Shown: positions 21,201-34,748 of the stretch, piece after piece
Position numbering within the stretch: position 1 is the first letter of the stretch
How the letters are laid out: each line of letters opens with the position of its first letter
From: Candidatus Amphrikana amoebophyrae
GTDB taxonomy: Bacteria; Chlamydiota; Chlamydiia; Chlamydiales; JACRBE01
Assembly: GCA_030408475.1 (NCBI GenBank)
Contig: JAUHQG010000027.1
Span: forward strand, 3,024-67,023
DNA length: 64,000 bases
Direction: 5' to 3'
The notes under the pieces: model-generated
Told to the model about the DNA's origin: nothing
The model's input: only the letters and a program-made list of their open reading frames with translations
The model's database searches: none
Position numbers and translations under genes: made by a program

Positions 21201-22535
21201 ATGTCACTTTTAGCATTAAAGGGTTTAGGCCCTAATCAAAATCTTTCTCTATTCAATACTTTTCAATTAAGGGGTGTAGCCCGTGTTTTTGTAGATGGTC
21301 AAGTGGCAGCTTTGATTTTAAAAGTGGGTAGCGGTGTTGTGTTTAGCGATAGCCCAACTTCACCTATAAAAAAAGATGTCAGGTCTTGTCTTAGATCTGG
21401 CGATTCAGTTAGGCTATTAGCAGGGAAAGTTAAATTTGCGGTTGATGAGAGATCTATAATATATAGTGACGATTCACCGCTACCTGCACAATGTCATGAT
21501 GGATTTAAAGAGCGAATGCTAGAGGCTAGATTTTCAGCTAATAATGTCCCTTTGGTATGTTCAGATGGAAAATTTGCTGAAGTTGAGTTTTTTAATGGTA
21601 GACCTGTTTTGCCTAATATAAGATCGTCTGATGACCCTCTTGAAATGTCGACATCAACTCTTAAAGTTCAACATTATGTGCTTATGTTAAATAATGTGTT
21701 AGGTGCTATGAACTTGAGTGGGCCGAATCAACTGATATTGAGCAGGGTTAGAGATCTATATAAAGTAATATACATAAAAGCCAGTTCTTTGAGTGGTCCA
21801 TTTTCTGATCGAGTGACAATTTCTATGACAAAAACATTTATGAAAATTTTATCTACTAGGGCTCCTAGTTGCTATTTAGATGAAGATTTGAAGTATTTTT
21901 GCTGGAGAGACGTTATTGGGGCAAGAGATACATGTGGTCGCGATAGTGGTGGAAAAGTAATTATGAGCTCACCTTTTGGGAAGGGGCGAATGGATGCGCT
22001 ACTTCAACAGGTGGATGGTCTTTTAGTTAGATATTGGGGTAATGCTGGTGAAAGCGTAAAGATTACATTAGCCACTATGCTATTTAACATGAAACAGTAT
22101 CAGGTAATGGGAGATAGGCATTTTAAGGCATTGCATAACCGACACCCGGTATTTGATGTGGCTAAACAAAGAGAAATGGTATTAAGATCACAATATGCCT
22201 ATCAAACTGCTGACTCATTTTTTTCGATTAAAAGGCACGTAATCAATGCTTTATATTTTACTCAGGCTCTATTAATGAAGCGAGATGCTTCAATTTCTAA
22301 AGAAGATCATGCCGAAATAGTACTAGAGATGTTTAATTTACTTCCGAAGTTTTTACAAGAAAGAATAAAGCAGCATATCTATATTATAGATCCAGTTGAA
22401 ACACTTGGCGCAGATACAGGTGCTGAGCGTTTAATAGCGGATCCTTTTTCTAACGTAGTGATTAGAGGTGTTCGTGAGGCTAGGTATCAACTATTACGTA
22501 GATTTAATAAATTTTTAACTCGCGCTCTAATTTGA
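21201..22535 (+). CDS. Hypothetical protein (orphan)
   Basis: The track ORF starts at TTG 21153. The first ATG, at 21201, gives MSLLALKG.... About 445 aa, no TM segment or signal peptide, no family recognised. Confidence 0.6.
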   Translation: MSLLALKGLGPNQNLSLFNTFQLRGVARVFVDGQVAALILKVGSGVVFSDSPTSPIKKDVRSCLRSGDSVRLLAGKVKFAVDERSIIYSDDSPLPAQCHDGFKERMLEARFSANNVPLVCSDGKFAEVEFFNGRPVLPNIRSSDDPLEMSTSTLKVQHYVLMLNNVLGAMNLSGPNQLILSRVRDLYKVIYIKASSLSGPFSDRVTISMTKTFMKILSTRAPSCYLDEDLKYFCWRDVIGARDTCGRDSGGKVIMSSPFGKGRMDALLQQVDGLLVRYWGNAGESVKITLATMLFNMKQYQVMGDRHFKALHNRHPVFDVAKQREMVLRSQYAYQTADSFFSIKRHVINALYFTQALLMKRDASISKEDHAEIVLEMFNLLPKFLQERIKQHIYIIDPVETLGADTGAERLIADPFSNVVIRGVREARYQLLRRFNKFLTRALI

Positions 22536-23593
22536 TCGATACCCTCTTGTGATTTTACAGGAGAAAATGAACTCTTTTTATCACAAATAAGAATACCACT
22601 TGATTTGGCAAGAGGGGCAATATCAGTGATAAACTGCTCGCCCTTAAAAATAGGCAAATCTTCTCCATTAAAATGGGTCGTTTTATTTACCCAATGAAAG
22701 GGCAAGTTTACTTTTGAGCAAATTCGCTCTAGAAAGTCAATAGAGAGACACATGTGATTGGTATTTCCATATTTAAGAGAGTTGACAATGTCACTATCAT
22801 TATAGTCAATGATGTGTAATTTATCTTGATATGTAGCAAAAGAGCCTACTTTTTTATCACTTTCATCTTTTGCATACCCTTTTACCGTTAATTCAAATCT
22901 ATTACTTAAATGTACTCCCAATAAATGAGGGTCATATGGGGGTAAAAGAGGGTTATCAACGTTTAGAATAATAACGGTTTCTATTCCCTGTTTTTTCCAA
23001 AGTTCAATTTTACCGCTATCTTTAAGAATGTGCAAAAGAGCTCCATTTCCGTCAGGTCCACATAGAAGTGTACCATCGTGGTTTAACTTCCACTTGTAAT
23101 CGTGTGTTAAGTAGGGTAATTCACTTTGGATAATCATATCAGAGCGATTAATTTGTTTCGCCCCTTCTTGTGTAGCTAATATAGTCAAATCTAAATGAGA
23201 AGGAACTTGTTCTTCAAGTAGTTGGAGGAGGGTTTTATCTTGAAATAGGGGGAAAAGGGCTTTTGGTTTATCAAATTTTAAGCGAGAGCCAGATCCACCG
23301 GCTAAAATAATAGCGTGCACTTTACCGTTTTTGATCGCTTCATTTCCAATAAGGGGATCACCTTCACGAAAAAGAGATGAGGGAGGGTTGATCGAAGAGG
23401 GAGTAAGAGGAGGGAGGCAATATTTAAAGTGGTGAAGAGGTCGTTTTTGAAATTGAAAGATTTGGTTGATGAGATTTTGAAGTTTATTAGAATTTAACTT
23501 GCGTACCTGAGGAATCAATTCTTCATGTGAAGTTGCTTTCAAAAAGGAAATGATAGAGTCAATATTGAGCATAAATTGAAGTTTATCGAACAA
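22487..23593 (-). CDS. UDP-sugar (UDP-GlcNAc-type) pyrophosphorylase, eukaryote-like UDPGP family
   Basis: ILAGGSGSRLKFDKPKALFPL (the LAGGxGTRLG..PKG box), CGPDGNGALL (PDGNGG box) and NVDNPLLPPYDPHLLG (VDNxL..xDP box). The start is TTG 23593 or ATG 23572. It is the last gene of the signalling operon. Confidence 0.75.
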   Translation of the reverse strand: MFDKLQFMLNIDSIISFLKATSHEELIPQVRKLNSNKLQNLINQIFQFQKRPLHHFKYCLPPLTPSSINPPSSLFREGDPLIGNEAIKNGKVHAIILAGGSGSRLKFDKPKALFPLFQDKTLLQLLEEQVPSHLDLTILATQEGAKQINRSDMIIQSELPYLTHDYKWKLNHDGTLLCGPDGNGALLHILKDSGKIELWKKQGIETVIILNVDNPLLPPYDPHLLGVHLSNRFELTVKGYAKDESDKKVGSFATYQDKLHIIDYNDSDIVNSLKYGNTNHMCLSIDFLERICSKVNLPFHWVNKTTHFNGEDLPIFKGEQFITDIAPLAKSSGILICDKKSSFSPVKSQEGIDQIRARVKNLLNLRNS

Positions 23594-23602
23594 TTGCTTT
23601 CT

Positions 23603-33217: not shown

Positions 33218-33503
33218 AGTGTGTTGAAACACAAGTTTAGTTAGTTGAGCATCGTCTTTTTGTGATCTTTTGCAAAAAAAGTTGCAGCTCACTGTACTTC
33301 AGTACAAGTTTCGCTCCAATTTTTGCCAAATATCAACAAAAATCCGACACTCTTTCTGAACTGACTTTCGGCGATCTTTCATTTTTTATAAAAATAAAAT
33401 CTCATCCAAAATCCATGTCCAGAAAACCTTTTAAATAGGTTGATTAAACTGTTTTTTGAAATGGCTGTTACATACAACTTGGGTTGTTAGATAAAGATGT
33501 TTT

Positions 33504-34748
33504 TTAACTCGCTTTTTCGAGGTTCTCCGTCTCTATGCCTAGTGCCTGGTTATAATATTTTACTCGCTCTTCTGTAATCGCTTTCCATGAAAAGGTTTGC
33601 GCGACATCTAACGCTTTTTGTGAAAGCTCAATCTTTTGATCATAAGGTAGATGCGCTAGCTTTAAAATTGCAGATGCTAACTCGTTGTCATTGGCAGGAG
33701 GCACTAACTTGCCTACAACAAAGTCACGAAGCCCTCCAACTGAAGTTGAGACAAGGGGCAATCCACAAGCCATTGATTCTAAACATGCTATTCCAAAACC
33801 TTCGGAGCGAGAGGGGAGAATGCCAAAATCACAAATATTGTGGATTTCAGCGAGCTCTTCCATGGTGCGATGGCCCAGGAAGTGAACCCTGTCAAATAGA
33901 AATTCCTCTTTTGAGTCAATGTCAATGACATCTTCAATTTTTCCCGAGCCTAATATTATGAAGTGGATGTTCTCTTTTGATTCAATTAACTTGTTGGCTT
34001 TTAAAAGTATGTCTATCCCTTTTGTCTTAGAAATTTTGCCAGCAAAACTAAATATGGTGGCGTCTTCAGGGATATCTAAGCAATAATGATTCAGCACTTC
34101 TTGTCTATTGAGCTCTCGTTTTTGAAATATTTCTTTGTCGTACCCGTTAGTGATGATTTTAACTTTGTCTTTGGAAACGTTATAGAGTCTTACTACTTCT
34201 TCAGCTACATATTTAGAAATGGCAAAAATGTATTTTGCATTGTGGGCAGCTTCAATAGCAATGGGTTGAATTCTTTCATCATACAAAAATCCCATTTGAT
34301 CTGAGTGATGAGCTGTACAGACATAAGGAATTCCAGCTTCTTCGATAATCTTTTCCATGGTCCAAATATGTTGACATTCTACTATGTCGGGCTGAAAGTC
34401 TTTAATTTCTTGTAACAGACTTTCTCGTAAACAATCGTAGTAAAAGGCAAACTCAGATTCAGAAAGTTCTCGATAGGTTCGTTTATGTTCTGGCACACGC
34501 GGATGGGGATCTGGAATCATAAGGGGAAAGGTTTCTATTGAGAAGTTTTCATTGCGAATGGGGAACTTCCAAATCTTATAAATTTCTTTATTGTCGTAAT
34601 AGAGGTTGATGTCTTTAGAGTCTATTCCAGCATCAGGAAAAAAAAGGCGCACTTCATGTCCCATTTTTATGAGAGCGTGAAGTACTGCATTAGCTACAGT
34701 GAAGCTGCCGGTTCCCCATGGACCAGTGTTTGTAATCAAAATCTTCAT
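33504..34748 (-). CDS. Glycosyltransferase family 4 (GT-B, retaining)
   Basis: C-terminal EGFGIACLESMACGLPLVSTSVGGLRDFV (EX7E-type motif) and an N-terminal MKILITNTGPWGTGS Rossmann start. Confidence 0.85.
   Translation of the reverse strand: MKILITNTGPWGTGSFTVANAVLHALIKMGHEVRLFFPDAGIDSKDINLYYDNKEIYKIWKFPIRNENFSIETFPLMIPDPHPRVPEHKRTYRELSESEFAFYYDCLRESLLQEIKDFQPDIVECQHIWTMEKIIEEAGIPYVCTAHHSDQMGFLYDERIQPIAIEAAHNAKYIFAISKYVAEEVVRLYNVSKDKVKIITNGYDKEIFQKRELNRQEVLNHYCLDIPEDATIFSFAGKISKTKGIDILLKANKLIESKENIHFIILGSGKIEDVIDIDSKEEFLFDRVHFLGHRTMEELAEIHNICDFGILPSRSEGFGIACLESMACGLPLVSTSVGGLRDFVVGKLVPPANDNELASAILKLAHLPYDQKIELSQKALDVAQTFSWKAITEERVKYYNQALGIETENLEKAS

Follow-up and report, generated by a model that had tools for sequence, protein, structure and literature searches.

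A putative signal-linked, synthase-dependent polysaccharide secretion locus in an environmental chlamydia

Introduction

The described systems closest to the locus reported here, PgaABCD/IcaADBC, which produce PNAG, and BcsA/BcsC, join an inner-membrane GT2 synthase to an outer-membrane protein made of TPRs and a β-barrel. By annotation, E. coli NfrB-NfrA-YbcH has a minimal layout, a GT2 gene beside the gene of a large TPR/outer-membrane protein. The Pel system includes a TPR-barrel protein (PelB), a receptor with a degenerate GGDEF domain (PelD) and a GT4 enzyme (PelF).

For Chlamydiota, the original prediction that we followed up held that no synthase-dependent polysaccharide system had been characterised; likewise, we found none described in the published literature searched, nor any description of the module presented below. 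Here we analyse an environmental chlamydia with apparent machinery for the synthesis of a sugar polymer and its export over both membranes.

Results

The window, a stretch of 64,000 nucleotides from a Rhabdochlamydiaceae metagenome-assembled genome, contains a nine-gene locus whose genes, junctions and GT2 motifs match the original prediction, all nine ORFs being found at the predicted positions and at full length. The features considered here are listed below; loci of other genomes are designated by L and a number.

22487..23593, minus strand: short UAP/AGX-type UDP-sugar pyrophosphorylase (UDPGP), last gene of the signalling operon (Pfam UDPGP, 72 bits)
23603..24733, minus strand: HEAT-repeat protein, N-terminal TM anchor and cytoplasmic HEAT domain (weak Pfam HEAT; TM prediction)
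24730..28029, minus strand: multidomain phosphorelay protein, Hpt/REC (Pfam Hpt and three REC stretches; alignment to the L003 homologue)
28033..28398, minus strand: single-domain CheY-like receiver (Pfam Response_reg, E = 2e-24)
28438..30084, minus strand: seven-TM histidine-kinase-like protein (Pfam HisKA and HATPase_c; seven TM segments)
30085..30205, no strand: divergent intergenic region, presumed promoter region, separating the signalling operon from the GT2-exporter pair (sequence read directly)
30206..31588, plus strand: GT2 membrane-embedded processive-type glycosyltransferase, the synthase (Pfam, NCBIfam, motifs, family HMM, TM prediction)
31592..33217, plus strand: predicted outer-membrane exporter, 541 aa (Pfam TPRs, AF2 model, Foldseek, barrel-family survey)
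33504..34748, minus strand: GT4 glycosyltransferase (Pfam Glycos_transf_1 and Glyco_transf_4)

As predicted, the signalling operon has junctions of 39 nt (kinase to CheY), 3 nt (CheY to Hpt/REC), a 4-nt overlap (Hpt/REC to HEAT) and 9 nt (HEAT to UDPGP), the exporter gene starts 4 nt past the last GT2 base (3 nt lie between the GT2 stop and this start), and the GT4 gene is convergent with the exporter gene. The divergent region measures 121 bp, also as predicted; read directly, it holds an SD-like GGAAAAGAGGGG preceding the GT2 ATG, and a consensus promoter scan gave background level only. L001 and L002 share this divergent layout. GC content is uniform in the window and there is therefore no sign of recent transfer.

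The GT2 enzyme comprises one N-terminal TM segment, a cytoplasmic GT-A domain and a C-terminal TM bundle (segments at residues 14-32, 365-383 and 390-408), and direct reading found the motifs DGSPDN, DGD, GED and QRARW, which confirms in full the processive-synthase signature and the TM layout proposed for it. The catalytic residues D97, D171/D173, E277-D278 and Q321-R322-x-R324-W325 are invariant in a cross-phylum alignment of 40 sequences. Pfam assigns Glycos_transf_2, Glyco_trans_2_3 and, weakly, Chitin_synth_2, and some family members show weak Glyco_transf_21 matches. The nearest curated families in NCBIfam are the polymer synthases PgaC/IcaA, NodC and CelA, PgaC_IcaA being the top match at 99 bits versus a cut-off of 422. 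Among E. coli proteins the family HMM scored PgaC best (101 bits; 25.6% identity to the GT2 over 270 aa), followed by YaiP (55 bits), with NfrB at 4 bits; BcsA matched the family profile weakly (49 bits). Thus PgaC/IcaA is the nearest curated family and yet the score lies far under the cut-off, and judged by these comparisons of sequence the GT2 is a family separate from PgaC.

The exporter consists of a signal peptide, ~5.5 TPRs (residues 24-210) and a 16-strand β-barrel (213-540) with the C-terminus ...NYYF, its terminal residue being aromatic. The barrel was a guess from sequence in the original prediction and is now backed by a confident model. The AF2 model, built with 72 sequences (pLDDT 95.6, pTM 0.86), shows a TPR superhelix and 16 strands, within the 16 to 18 suggested for such a barrel, and its top Foldseek matches in the whole PDB are BcsC (9b8a, E = 5.8e-14; 6tzk, E = 1.3e-10) and PgaA (4y25; TM 0.72 to target), as the proposed BcsC/PgaA-type architecture implies. 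The likeness is one of fold only, as no sequence-level similarity of the barrel to PgaA, NfrA or YaiO was found and the protein scores 29.6 against the NCBIfam PGA_TPR_OMP cut-off of 366.65. The barrel domain family has just 81 representatives among 1.84e9 proteins, C-terminal in every case; N-terminal TPRs are present in 70/72 members, and 48/72 also match the TPR_Slam profile. Among four close homologues the barrel region is strongly conserved (68% mean column identity). The exporter gene abuts the GT2 gene in L001 (0 nt) and lies directly 3' of it in L003 and L017.

The HEAT protein, treated as a bystander in the original prediction, proved instead to be linked to the synthase more tightly than any other partner. 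It has a TM segment at residues 8-26 followed by 8 K/R, the HEAT domain being predicted to be cytoplasmic, and its orthologues lie directly upstream of GT2 in L001, L002, L003, L005, L006, L015, L016 and L017 and in all 79 evaluable loci of a metagenome set. Identity is 42-46% and GC content high in all 80 loci of this set, which are the best of at least 580 matches; since they may represent few lineages, 79/79 overstates the independent support. The HEAT protein is presumed to be a regulatory or adaptor subunit for the synthase.

In the Hpt/REC protein, an N-terminal stretch that contains the acidic repeat (EPEPDV)n precedes Hpt, after which come REC1, REC2, a degenerate GGDEF domain and finally REC3. 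Pfam supports the predicted Hpt and three REC domains, but the GGDEF gave no Pfam match even at E <= 10 and is deduced from the colinear alignment of residues ~823-960 with the L003 homologue, which bears a Pfam GGDEF match. Its A-site reads ARNLY and its I-site is lost; the RxxD I-site is kept in the L003 and L017 homologues. The Hpt His and the REC1 and REC2 phospho-sites are conserved, and REC3 is without its acidic pair in the window as well as in L001 and L002. The CheY phospho-sites are intact, and CheY orthologues are present in L001, L003 and L017. The predicted sensor kinase does have HisKA and HATPase_c domains, seven TM segments and, read directly, intact ATP-binding boxes, but in its H-box, LSYKLRTPL, Tyr replaces the phospho-acceptor His, as it does in L001; the His is present in L002, L003 and L017.

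Of six chlamydia-type GT2 loci, five keep a kinase gene together with those for HEAT and Hpt/REC. In L001, whose GT2 is 65% identical, all nine genes stand in the same order, and L002, L003 and L017 likewise keep kinase, Hpt/REC and HEAT with GT2; the TPR-barrel gene and a convergent GT4 gene beside it are also kept in L001, L003 and L017 and are missing beside GT2 in L002 and L004. L004 has GT2 alone, L101 lacks the whole central block, and L104 retains only UDPGP and the TPR-barrel, with no adjacent GT2. A three-gene core of GT2, HEAT and Hpt-REC is found in unrelated soil bacteria as well; the trio is present in L005, L015, L016 and more distantly L006. In 59/59 evaluable metagenome loci (best 80 of at least 580 matches) Hpt-REC lies upstream of HEAT-GT2. 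The GT2 family thus has two near-obligate genomic partners, an Hpt-REC protein and a HEAT protein that is anchored in the membrane and lies in the cytoplasm. The link between synthase and phosphorelay genes is thereby confirmed, in a reduced form in the metagenome loci; the TPR-barrel, GT4 and UDPGP, expected to co-occur with them, are more loosely linked, and the TPR-barrel is absent beside GT2 in all 80 metagenome loci (best 80 of at least 580). Rather than being peculiar to chlamydiae, the locus is a local version of a module that spans phyla.

As predicted, the UDPGP protein is of the eukaryotic UDP-GlcNAc-like type, its best PDB relatives being eukaryotic UDP-GlcNAc pyrophosphorylases (E = 2e-18 versus ~1e-4 for UDP-glucose pyrophosphorylases), and its substrate is probably a UDP-HexNAc. 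The proposal that it is a dedicated sugar-nucleotide supply fares poorly: the gene belongs to the operon of L001 and L002 and is absent from L003, L017 and 80/80 metagenome loci (best 80 of at least 580). The opposite possibility, a housekeeping gene found without GT2, is partly borne out, with no adjacent GT2 in L101, L102 and L104, and likewise in L103. L101 and L102 retain UDPGP and GT4 although the module is missing, the two genes adjoining each other in L101. Related genomes with no GT2 next to UDPGP have this gene together with GT4, by itself, or together with the barrel gene. GT4 is absent from the 80 metagenome loci (best 80 of at least 580). Among its 25 best NCBIfam matches GT4 is not specifically PelF-like. 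GT4 and UDPGP are loosely linked accessories and not core.

Discussion

The reading of the locus as signal-linked and synthase-dependent is largely supported, with the corrections given above. We consider it fairly probable that a widespread, apparently uncharacterised module for synthase-dependent polysaccharide secretion is present here in its chlamydial version. The GT2 would polymerise a UDP-sugar at the inner membrane, probably a HexNAc, since the enzyme has affinities to PgaC, NodC and chitin synthase and a UAP-type enzyme is encoded nearby, and would thread the chain through a channel of its own; the chain would be taken up by the periplasmic TPR domain and carried over the outer membrane by the barrel. 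As the module receivers have no DNA-binding output and HEAT always stands between Hpt-REC and the synthase gene, post-translational gating is most likely, the Hpt/REC protein acting on the synthase via the HEAT subunit according to its state of phosphorylation. Gene order and absent output domains suggest this adaptor role, in which HEAT would stand where known systems have c-di-GMP receptors (PgaCD, BcsA-PilZ, PelD, NfrB-MshEN). The membrane kinase(s), the CheY, the additional REC domains and the degenerate GGDEF would be chlamydial additions, and GT4 and UDPGP may serve as neighbouring accessories in priming, decoration or precursor supply. The claim of dedicated phosphorelay control holds as to the conserved gene linkage but is weakened in this genome by a kinase without its phospho-acceptor His; since the input end is partly degenerate (His to Tyr, REC3 a pseudo-receiver), control may belong to another kinase or be constitutive. 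Polymer identity and mechanism are inferred.

QxxRW GT2s with TM bundles include enzymes that secrete no polymer, and it is conceivable, albeit unlikely, that the product of this GT2 is a glycan or glycolipid that stays in the periplasm or with the cell (such as an envelope glucan, or a glycosylated lipid or carrier); the TPR-barrel would then serve another purpose in the outer membrane, and the signalling genes would regulate envelope remodelling. The weak Glyco_transf_21 and the TPR_Slam matches would fit, as would the lack of a TPR-barrel beside GT2 in L002, L004 and the metagenome loci (best 80 of at least 580) and its occurrence alone in L104. However, the exporter gene follows GT2 within 3 nt here, at 0 nt in L001 and next in L003 and L017, its protein is matched best in the whole PDB by two polysaccharide exporters, BcsC and PgaA, and not by Slam or generic porins, many GT2 family members without it carry another barrel-type domain after the synthase, and the nearest curated enzymes are polymer synthases. 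That the locus is a divergent pga/ica-type operon making β-1,6-GlcNAc, its usual partners lost, is very unlikely. PgaC is the best match in NCBIfam and in E. coli, the exporter has the PgaA fold and a UAP-type UDP-HexNAc enzyme is encoded nearby, but both proteins fall far short of the PNAG family cut-offs, identity to PgaC is low, neither a PgaB-type deacetylase nor a PgaD-like small membrane protein was found in or beside the locus, and the invariant partners HEAT and Hpt-REC are unmentioned for pga operons in the operon census.

Decay in a reduced genome, leaving intact ORFs that no longer work as a regulated unit, could account for the Tyr in the kinases of the window and L001, the loss of the REC3 acidic pair (also in L001 and L002) and of the GGDEF I-site, and the piecemeal losses in L002, L101, L104 and L004; it is quite unlikely given nine full-length ORFs with tight junctions, intact GT2 catalytic residues, Hpt His, REC1, REC2 and CheY sites and kinase ATP-binding boxes, the conserved barrel and the identical gene order of L001. 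Promoter and terminator scans gave no positive evidence of an operon, as chance juxtaposition of unrelated neighbours would have it; this explanation is extremely improbable and effectively refuted by synteny, since the same arrangement is met again in other chlamydial lineages, at 49-65% GT2 identity, and in other phyla.

The secretion module that we favour shares with PgaABCD/IcaADBC the GT2 motif set, the N- and C-terminal TM layout and an outer-membrane partner of TPRs and a 16-strand barrel of the PgaA fold. It differs in lying far under the equivalog cut-offs (99 vs 422; 29.6 vs 366.65) and in having obligate HEAT and Hpt-REC partners instead of PgaB and PgaD; the predicted lack of a PgaB-like deacetylase and of PgaD in or beside the locus was confirmed, and unlike PgaABCD the locus shows no sign of c-di-GMP control. 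With BcsA/BcsC it has in common the logic of synthase plus TPR-barrel porin, and BcsC, the best structural match, aligns over TPR and barrel; however, identity is ~10%, the TPR region is much shorter, the GT2 has no PilZ domain and the locus no BcsB. The layout recalls NfrB-NfrA, although NfrB is essentially unrelated at HMM level, the barrel profile misses NfrA, and NfrB is annotated as c-di-GMP-activated whereas the chlamydial system is linked to a phosphorelay. Unlike Pel, the locus has a TM-embedded GT2 synthase, and no PelG, PelA, PelC or PelE homologues were seen; like Pel, it brings together an exporter of the TPR-barrel type, a GT4 and a GGDEF that is degenerate. The I-site of this GGDEF, lost in the window, is kept in L003 and L017 as in c-di-GMP-receptor GGDEFs. 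The uncharacterised E. coli yaiP-yaiO pair, YaiP being the second-best E. coli match to the GT2 family, differs in its barrel, as the chlamydial one is larger, with 16 strands and TPRs, and in a profile comparison shows no relation to the YaiO-like domain (hhalign probability 0.4%). Many non-chlamydial family members nevertheless resemble this pair, a YaiO-like barrel domain following or being fused to GT2 in 29/65 metagenome loci (best 80 of at least 580), so that two different forms of outer-membrane-type barrel have been acquired by the synthase family.

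Results

Organization of the locus

Direct inspection of the window bore out the original prediction of nine ORFs at 22487-34748, together with the tight packing of the minus-strand signalling operon and the 121-bp divergent gap (30085-30205) between the kinase and synthase genes. The ORFs considered here, with domains as called by Pfam and NCBIfam, are as follows.

21153-22535, plus strand: 460-aa ORF, function not assigned by family, overlapping the UDPGP gene convergently
22487-23593, minus strand: 368-aa protein with a UDPGP domain
23603-24733, minus strand: 376-aa protein with weak HEAT repeats
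24730-28029, minus strand: 1099-aa protein with an Hpt domain and three receiver stretches (Hpt/REC)
between the preceding and following ORFs, minus strand: single-domain, CheY-like receiver
28438-30084, minus strand: kinase, HisKA and HATPase_c after seven TM segments
30206-31588, plus strand: 460-aa glycosyltransferase (GT2)
31592-33217, plus strand: 541-aa protein with TPRs within its first 200 residues (TPR-barrel)
between the preceding and following ORFs, minus strand: glycosyltransferase GT4
34798-35811, minus strand: 337-aa ORF without a family match, downstream of GT4, with a single C-terminal TM segment

On the minus strand 39 nt separate the kinase and receiver genes, 3 nt the receiver and Hpt/REC genes, and 9 nt the HEAT and UDPGP genes, while the Hpt/REC and HEAT genes overlap by 4 nt. 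On the plus strand, 3 nt lie between the stop codon of the GT2 gene and the ATG of the TPR-barrel gene. As the GC content is flat (35-37%) over the locus and its surroundings, there is no sign of recent import, and recent horizontal acquisition was rejected. A promoter and terminator scan was uninformative, its counts being equal to shuffled expectation. The convergent overlap of the 460-aa ORF with the UDPGP gene measures 49 nt (22487-22535), and an orthologue of that ORF is found at the same position in L101, the UDPGP context of a relative. The 337-aa ORF has a weak counterpart (23 bits) at the same position in L001, the closest chlamydial locus compared.

The synthase

The GT2 protein had been predicted to combine the signature of a processive synthase with TM segments at both ends, and this reading stood. 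The motifs DGSPDN, DGD, GED and QRARW are read from the sequence, their key residues are invariant in an alignment of 40 sequences from Chlamydiota and soil bacteria, and hydropathy places one N-terminal TM segment and a C-terminal TM cluster on either side of a cytoplasmic catalytic domain. With D, DxD, (G/T)ED and QxxRW between terminal TM segments, the protein would be an inner-membrane synthase of the processive type. Pfam assigns Glycos_transf_2, Glyco_trans_2_3 and, weakly, Chitin_synth_2. No NCBIfam model is passed: PgaC_IcaA comes closest, with 99 bits where 422 are needed, followed by an XrtG-associated glycosyltransferase at 92 bits, with NodC and CelA much lower. With a family HMM the E. 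coli proteins PgaC, YaiP and NfrB scored 101, 55 and 4 bits, respectively, and by BLASTP the protein is 25.6% identical to E. coli PgaC over 270 residues. PDB searches with the single sequence and with the family profile returned no close solved relative, BcsA, hyaluronan synthase and chitin synthase being weak matches; we rejected such matches as a classifier, since they are mostly generic GT-A N-terminal halves. Because the curated scores are far below their cut-offs and there is no close solved relative, we place the protein, by sequence, in the processive-synthase part of GT2, nearest to PgaC and yet in a separate family, and apart from the non-processive LPS and lipid-carrier transferases. 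Scanning a genome collection with the GT2 alone yielded nine distant relatives of 32-34% identity, from Bacteroidales and Burkholderiales; co-occurrence in Chlamydiota was followed by look-ups of exact-protein contexts instead. Cluster members of the GT2 homologues contributed further taxon names from Gemmatimonadota only.

The exporter

The 541-aa protein had been taken for a TPR and C-terminal barrel exporter of the PgaA/BcsC type, and structure prediction agrees. An exhaustive search of 1.84 billion proteins with a profile of its C-terminal 343 residues gave 81 representatives; the barrel domain is always C-terminal, and N-terminal TPRs are present in 70 of 72 family members. The AF2 model built on the resulting 72-sequence alignment (pLDDT 95.6, pTM 0.86) shows a signal-peptide helix, eleven TPR helices (residues 24-210) and sixteen long antiparallel strands (213-540). 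It supersedes a model from four sequences, which had a pLDDT of 68.8, disorder at 348-434 and Foldseek matches swamped by TPR proteins. Compared with the PDB by Foldseek, the model ranks E. coli BcsC at the top (9b8a at 5.8e-14, 9b8h, 6tzk) and the PgaA barrel sixth (4y25, TM-score 0.72 normalised to the target), with generic porins and autotransporters below them. The C-terminus reads ...NYYF, a terminal aromatic residue being typical of outer-membrane barrels. The protein is therefore modelled as an outer-membrane porin with a TPR domain and a barrel within the 16-18-strand range, encoded directly after the synthase.

The likeness of the modelled exporter to BcsC and PgaA is one of fold only, the barrel profile having no sequence match to PgaA, NfrA or YaiO, and no known barrel family stood among the 25 listed of the 75 Pfam families matched in the barrel search. 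Membership of the YaiO family was rejected (no Pfam match at E <= 10, hhalign probability 0.4%). All barrel-family members with a name come from chlamydiae (Simkaniaceae, Chlamydiales and Criblamydia sequanensis, the last with a 1013-aa protein, WP_079978007.1). Besides the pair in L017, another chlamydial locus, three further barrel proteins have a longest contig of exactly the length recorded for a GT2 homologue, circumstantial evidence that they are perhaps linked to GT2 genes. The loop between barrel strands 13 and 14 (33014-33058, residues ~475-489) carries AEEIS-NNARPPQ, highly conserved in four close homologues; it is a candidate for a constriction or gate in the pore.

Genes that travel together in Chlamydiota

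Table. Gene content of chlamydia-type loci (GT2 identity to the window in brackets; Tyr, kinase in which Tyr occupies the position of the phospho-acceptor His)
Window (100%): kinase (Tyr), Hpt/REC, HEAT, UDPGP, TPR-barrel and GT4 all present
L001 (65%): kinase (Tyr), Hpt/REC, HEAT, UDPGP, TPR-barrel and GT4 all present
L002, 1.42-Mb contig (49%): kinase, Hpt/REC, HEAT and UDPGP present; TPR-barrel and GT4 absent
L003, Chlamydiia (49%): kinase, Hpt/REC, HEAT, TPR-barrel (942 aa) and GT4 present; UDPGP absent
L017, Chlamydiales (50%): two kinases, Hpt/REC, HEAT, TPR-barrel (822 aa) and GT4 present; UDPGP absent
L004 (49%): GT2 alone; kinase, Hpt/REC, HEAT, UDPGP, TPR-barrel and GT4 absent

The whole nine-gene arrangement is reproduced in L001. 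In L003 and L017 all genes lie on one strand; the barrel profile scores their TPR proteins at 121 and 377 bits, respectively, and the single-domain receiver genes number two and one. Synthase, barrel and signalling genes thus stand together in L001, L003 and L017; L002 keeps the synthase and signalling genes without the barrel beside them, and L004 has the GT2 alone.

A three-gene core beyond Chlamydiota

In a Gemmatimonadota genome (L005) and two further contigs (L015 and L016) we find the order Hpt-REC, HEAT, GT2, with the genes overlapping or abutting; upstream of the GT2 of a Burkholderiales relative (34% identity) there is a HEAT protein as well. A metagenome scan with the GT2 family alignment found at least 580 relatives, of which the best 80 loci were analysed; these are alike (GC 63-71%, 42-46% identity to the GT2 of the window) and may stand for few lineages. 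Among these best 80, the HEAT gene is directly upstream of the GT2 gene on the same strand in all 79 loci with any upstream sequence, the Hpt-REC gene is upstream of HEAT in all 59 with at least 2.5 kb upstream, and the HEAT protein of the window directly matches 64 of the 80. The 16-strand barrel, UDPGP and GT4 each occur in 0/80. As the HEAT and Hpt-REC genes are constant and the accessories absent, we regard synthase, HEAT and Hpt-REC as the invariant unit. The module is therefore, on sequence similarity, broader than Chlamydiota, and HEAT is central to it, an importance that the original prediction missed although it had seen the gene.

In 29 of 65 loci among the best 80 of the metagenome scan, a YaiO-like barrel domain is fused to the GT2 or follows it. 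This is seen in Gemmatimonadota-like bacteria (29 proteins of ~711 aa within P0048-P0118; L015, 8001-10136; L021-L100). That one polypeptide should unite an inner-membrane synthase with an outer-membrane barrel is topologically odd; cleavage, a miscalled gene or a domain that is no true outer-membrane barrel may explain it. L007 (9842-14148), from a Bacteroidaceae MAG, has a GT2 of 33% identity and, immediately after it, a 951-aa TPR protein to which the chlamydial barrel profile gives no match; here a synthase of this type may have been paired with a TPR outer-membrane partner for a third time, independently.

State of the signalling proteins

The Hpt motif HKIAGSSGSYG is conserved in all five chlamydial orthologues, REC1 and REC2 keep the Asp-Asp pair, the phospho-Asp and the Lys in all five, and the CheY-like receiver reads canonical. 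The acidic pair of REC3 is lost in the window, L001 and L002 and kept in L003 and L017. A degenerate GGDEF domain had been predicted in the 1099-aa protein; Pfam does not detect it directly in the window protein, and the prediction stands by way of the homologue in L003, with whose GGDEF domain (Pfam, 39 bits) the region is colinear. The GG(D/E)EF active site is degenerate in all five orthologues, reading ARNLY in the window, and lacks the residues of a diguanylate cyclase. Of the RxxD I-site, copies are left in two loci, as RSRD in the homologue at 4740-7166 of L003 and as REQD in that at 2015-4423 of L017, five residues before the dead active site; the window, L001 and L002 have lost it. A dead active site with a kept I-site is the pattern of c-di-GMP receptors. 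In its N-terminal region the 1099-aa protein has an acidic (EPEPDV)n tract, the product of an 18-bp tandem repeat at 27201-27334 (7.4 copies, 90% matches); this N-terminal extension is unaligned with the 808-aa L003 homologue.

The kinase, read as a sensor kinase in the original prediction, departs from the canonical form. Its H-box reads LSYKLRTPL in the window, with Tyr at residue ~316 in place of the phospho-acceptor His, and LSYHLRTPL in L001, the His being kept in L002, L003 and L017. As the H-box carries Tyr but the ATP-binding boxes (N, G1, F and G2) look intact, the protein may be either a pseudokinase or a kinase acting in trans, and it probably does not autophosphorylate on the usual residue. 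No signalling protein in any version of the locus has a DNA-binding output domain. The HEAT protein has a single TM segment, after which come eight Lys/Arg residues; its repeats are accordingly predicted to be cytoplasmic.

UDPGP, GT4 and separable parts

The UDPGP enzyme (72 bits against a Pfam cut-off of 22) was predicted to be of the eukaryotic, UDP-GlcNAc-like type, and its best PDB matches, UDP-GlcNAc pyrophosphorylases at 2e-18 against UGPases at ~1e-4, would make it a member of the UAP/AGX type; the family is small and fast-evolving. Its supposed role in supplying sugar nucleotide to the synthase fared less well, the rival view being that it is a housekeeping enzyme found also without the GT2 pair. 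In L101 the orthologues of GT4 (487 bits) and UDPGP (324 bits) are direct neighbours, in that order, and after them come orthologues of two upstream genes of the window, the 460-aa and the 855-aa one (compared spans: L101, 8731-15265; window, 18476-34748). As GT4 and UDPGP adjoin there within the same flanks, the 9.6-kb block from HEAT to TPR-barrel (23603-33217) is an insertion or deletion between them relative to L101. UDPGP stands alone in L102, and in L103 a 25%-identical UDPGP lies beside a GT9 gene. L104 (347-3134) has UDPGP and a 41%-identical TPR-barrel orthologue as divergent genes separated by 91 bp; genes for GT2, HEAT, Hpt/REC and kinase are absent from between them, and GT4 is missing too. 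UDPGP, GT4 and even the exporter can thus persist without an adjacent synthase, adjacency being read here on short contigs only. The housekeeping view is borne out in part: since UDPGP occurs without an adjacent GT2 (L101, L102 and L104), we demote sugar-nucleotide supply from a pillar of the original prediction to a plausible accessory.

Several samples yielded contigs with the L104-type arrangement. The immediate neighbours of GT4 in L101 include an integrase, a DUF3987 primase-like gene and a DnaG zinc-ribbon gene.

Discussion

The observation underlying the original prediction is confirmed, and its core interpretation, the linkage of synthase, exporter and phosphorelay, is supported; correction was needed as to what UDPGP does, how intact the kinase is, how central HEAT is and how far the module extends phylogenetically. 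Based on our data we propose, tentatively and as a reading that is possible though rather short of probable, that GT2, HEAT and Hpt-REC constitute a new synthase-dependent class spanning Gemmatimonadota-like soil bacteria, Burkholderiales and Chlamydiota, in which a His-Asp phosphorelay switches the synthase through a membrane-anchored HEAT subunit where known systems use c-di-GMP, and that the chlamydial lineage has recruited its own exporter of BcsC/PgaA fold which would give these obligate intracellular bacteria a secreted glycan under regulation, of use perhaps in the extracellular stage, in host attachment or in inclusion biology.

The GT2 would polymerise and translocate a chain derived from a UDP-sugar, HexNAc being our best guess, and the TPR domain and barrel would carry it across the periplasm and the outer membrane. 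The HEAT repeats, predicted to be cytoplasmic, would make synthase activity depend on whether the Hpt/REC protein is phosphorylated; speculatively, the input may come from elsewhere or from the dedicated kinase acting on the Hpt domain in trans. As the signalling proteins lack transcriptional outputs, the gene order is fixed and the known systems offer an analogy in their c-di-GMP receptors, we propose, by an indirect argument, that this control is post-translational. Both product and regulation are inferred.

Synthase-dependent systems (cellulose, PNAG, alginate, Pel and Nfr) are the paradigm for secretion of biofilm polysaccharides, and if our proposal is true, a synthase family hard-wired to HEAT and Hpt-REC adds a different control logic and a new type of subunit, in the form of a concrete three-gene unit. 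The inner-membrane synthase with its outer-membrane exporter would be the first predicted machine for a secreted polysaccharide in Chlamydiota. The piecemeal loss among relatives offers a natural series on which parts depend on which, and as the barrel family includes a protein of the cultured Criblamydia sequanensis, experiments may be feasible.

In the literature searched we found no description of the module or of a chlamydial synthase-dependent system, and nothing relevant on YaiO with a glycosyltransferase, on combinations of HEAT, Hpt and synthase, or on chlamydial EPS or PgaC; a 2020 census of synthase-dependent operons makes no mention of Chlamydia, Gemmatimonadota, HEAT, Hpt or phosphorelay.

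To our knowledge, the well-studied Gram-negative synthase-dependent systems are gated by c-di-GMP. Compared with PgaABCD, the GT2 falls far below the PgaC equivalog cut-off (TIGR03937, 422.3 bits), the exporter reaches 29.6 bits, in its TPR region only, against 366.65 for PgaA (TIGR03939), its barrel resembles E. coli PgaA in fold and not by HMM, and no ORF of the locus or its flanks has a PgaB deacetylase/hydrolase or PgaD domain, as originally predicted. Unlike Bcs, the locus has no BcsB-like ORF and its GT2 no PilZ match, with 25 bits against the CelA cut-off of 699 (TIGR03030); PilZ, MshEN and PgaD were not found by Pfam or NCBIfam in any protein of the locus, and the HEAT partner is not covered by any NCBIfam model. 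The NfrAB proteins are unrelated by sequence (NfrB as scored with the family HMM, and NfrA at 1.6 bits with the barrel HMM), whereas Pel lacks the TM GT2 that is present here. Pga, Bcs, Nfr and Pel share the secretion logic of the locus, which belongs to none of them: that logic is familiar, and what appears to be new is the set of subunits and the input that controls them.
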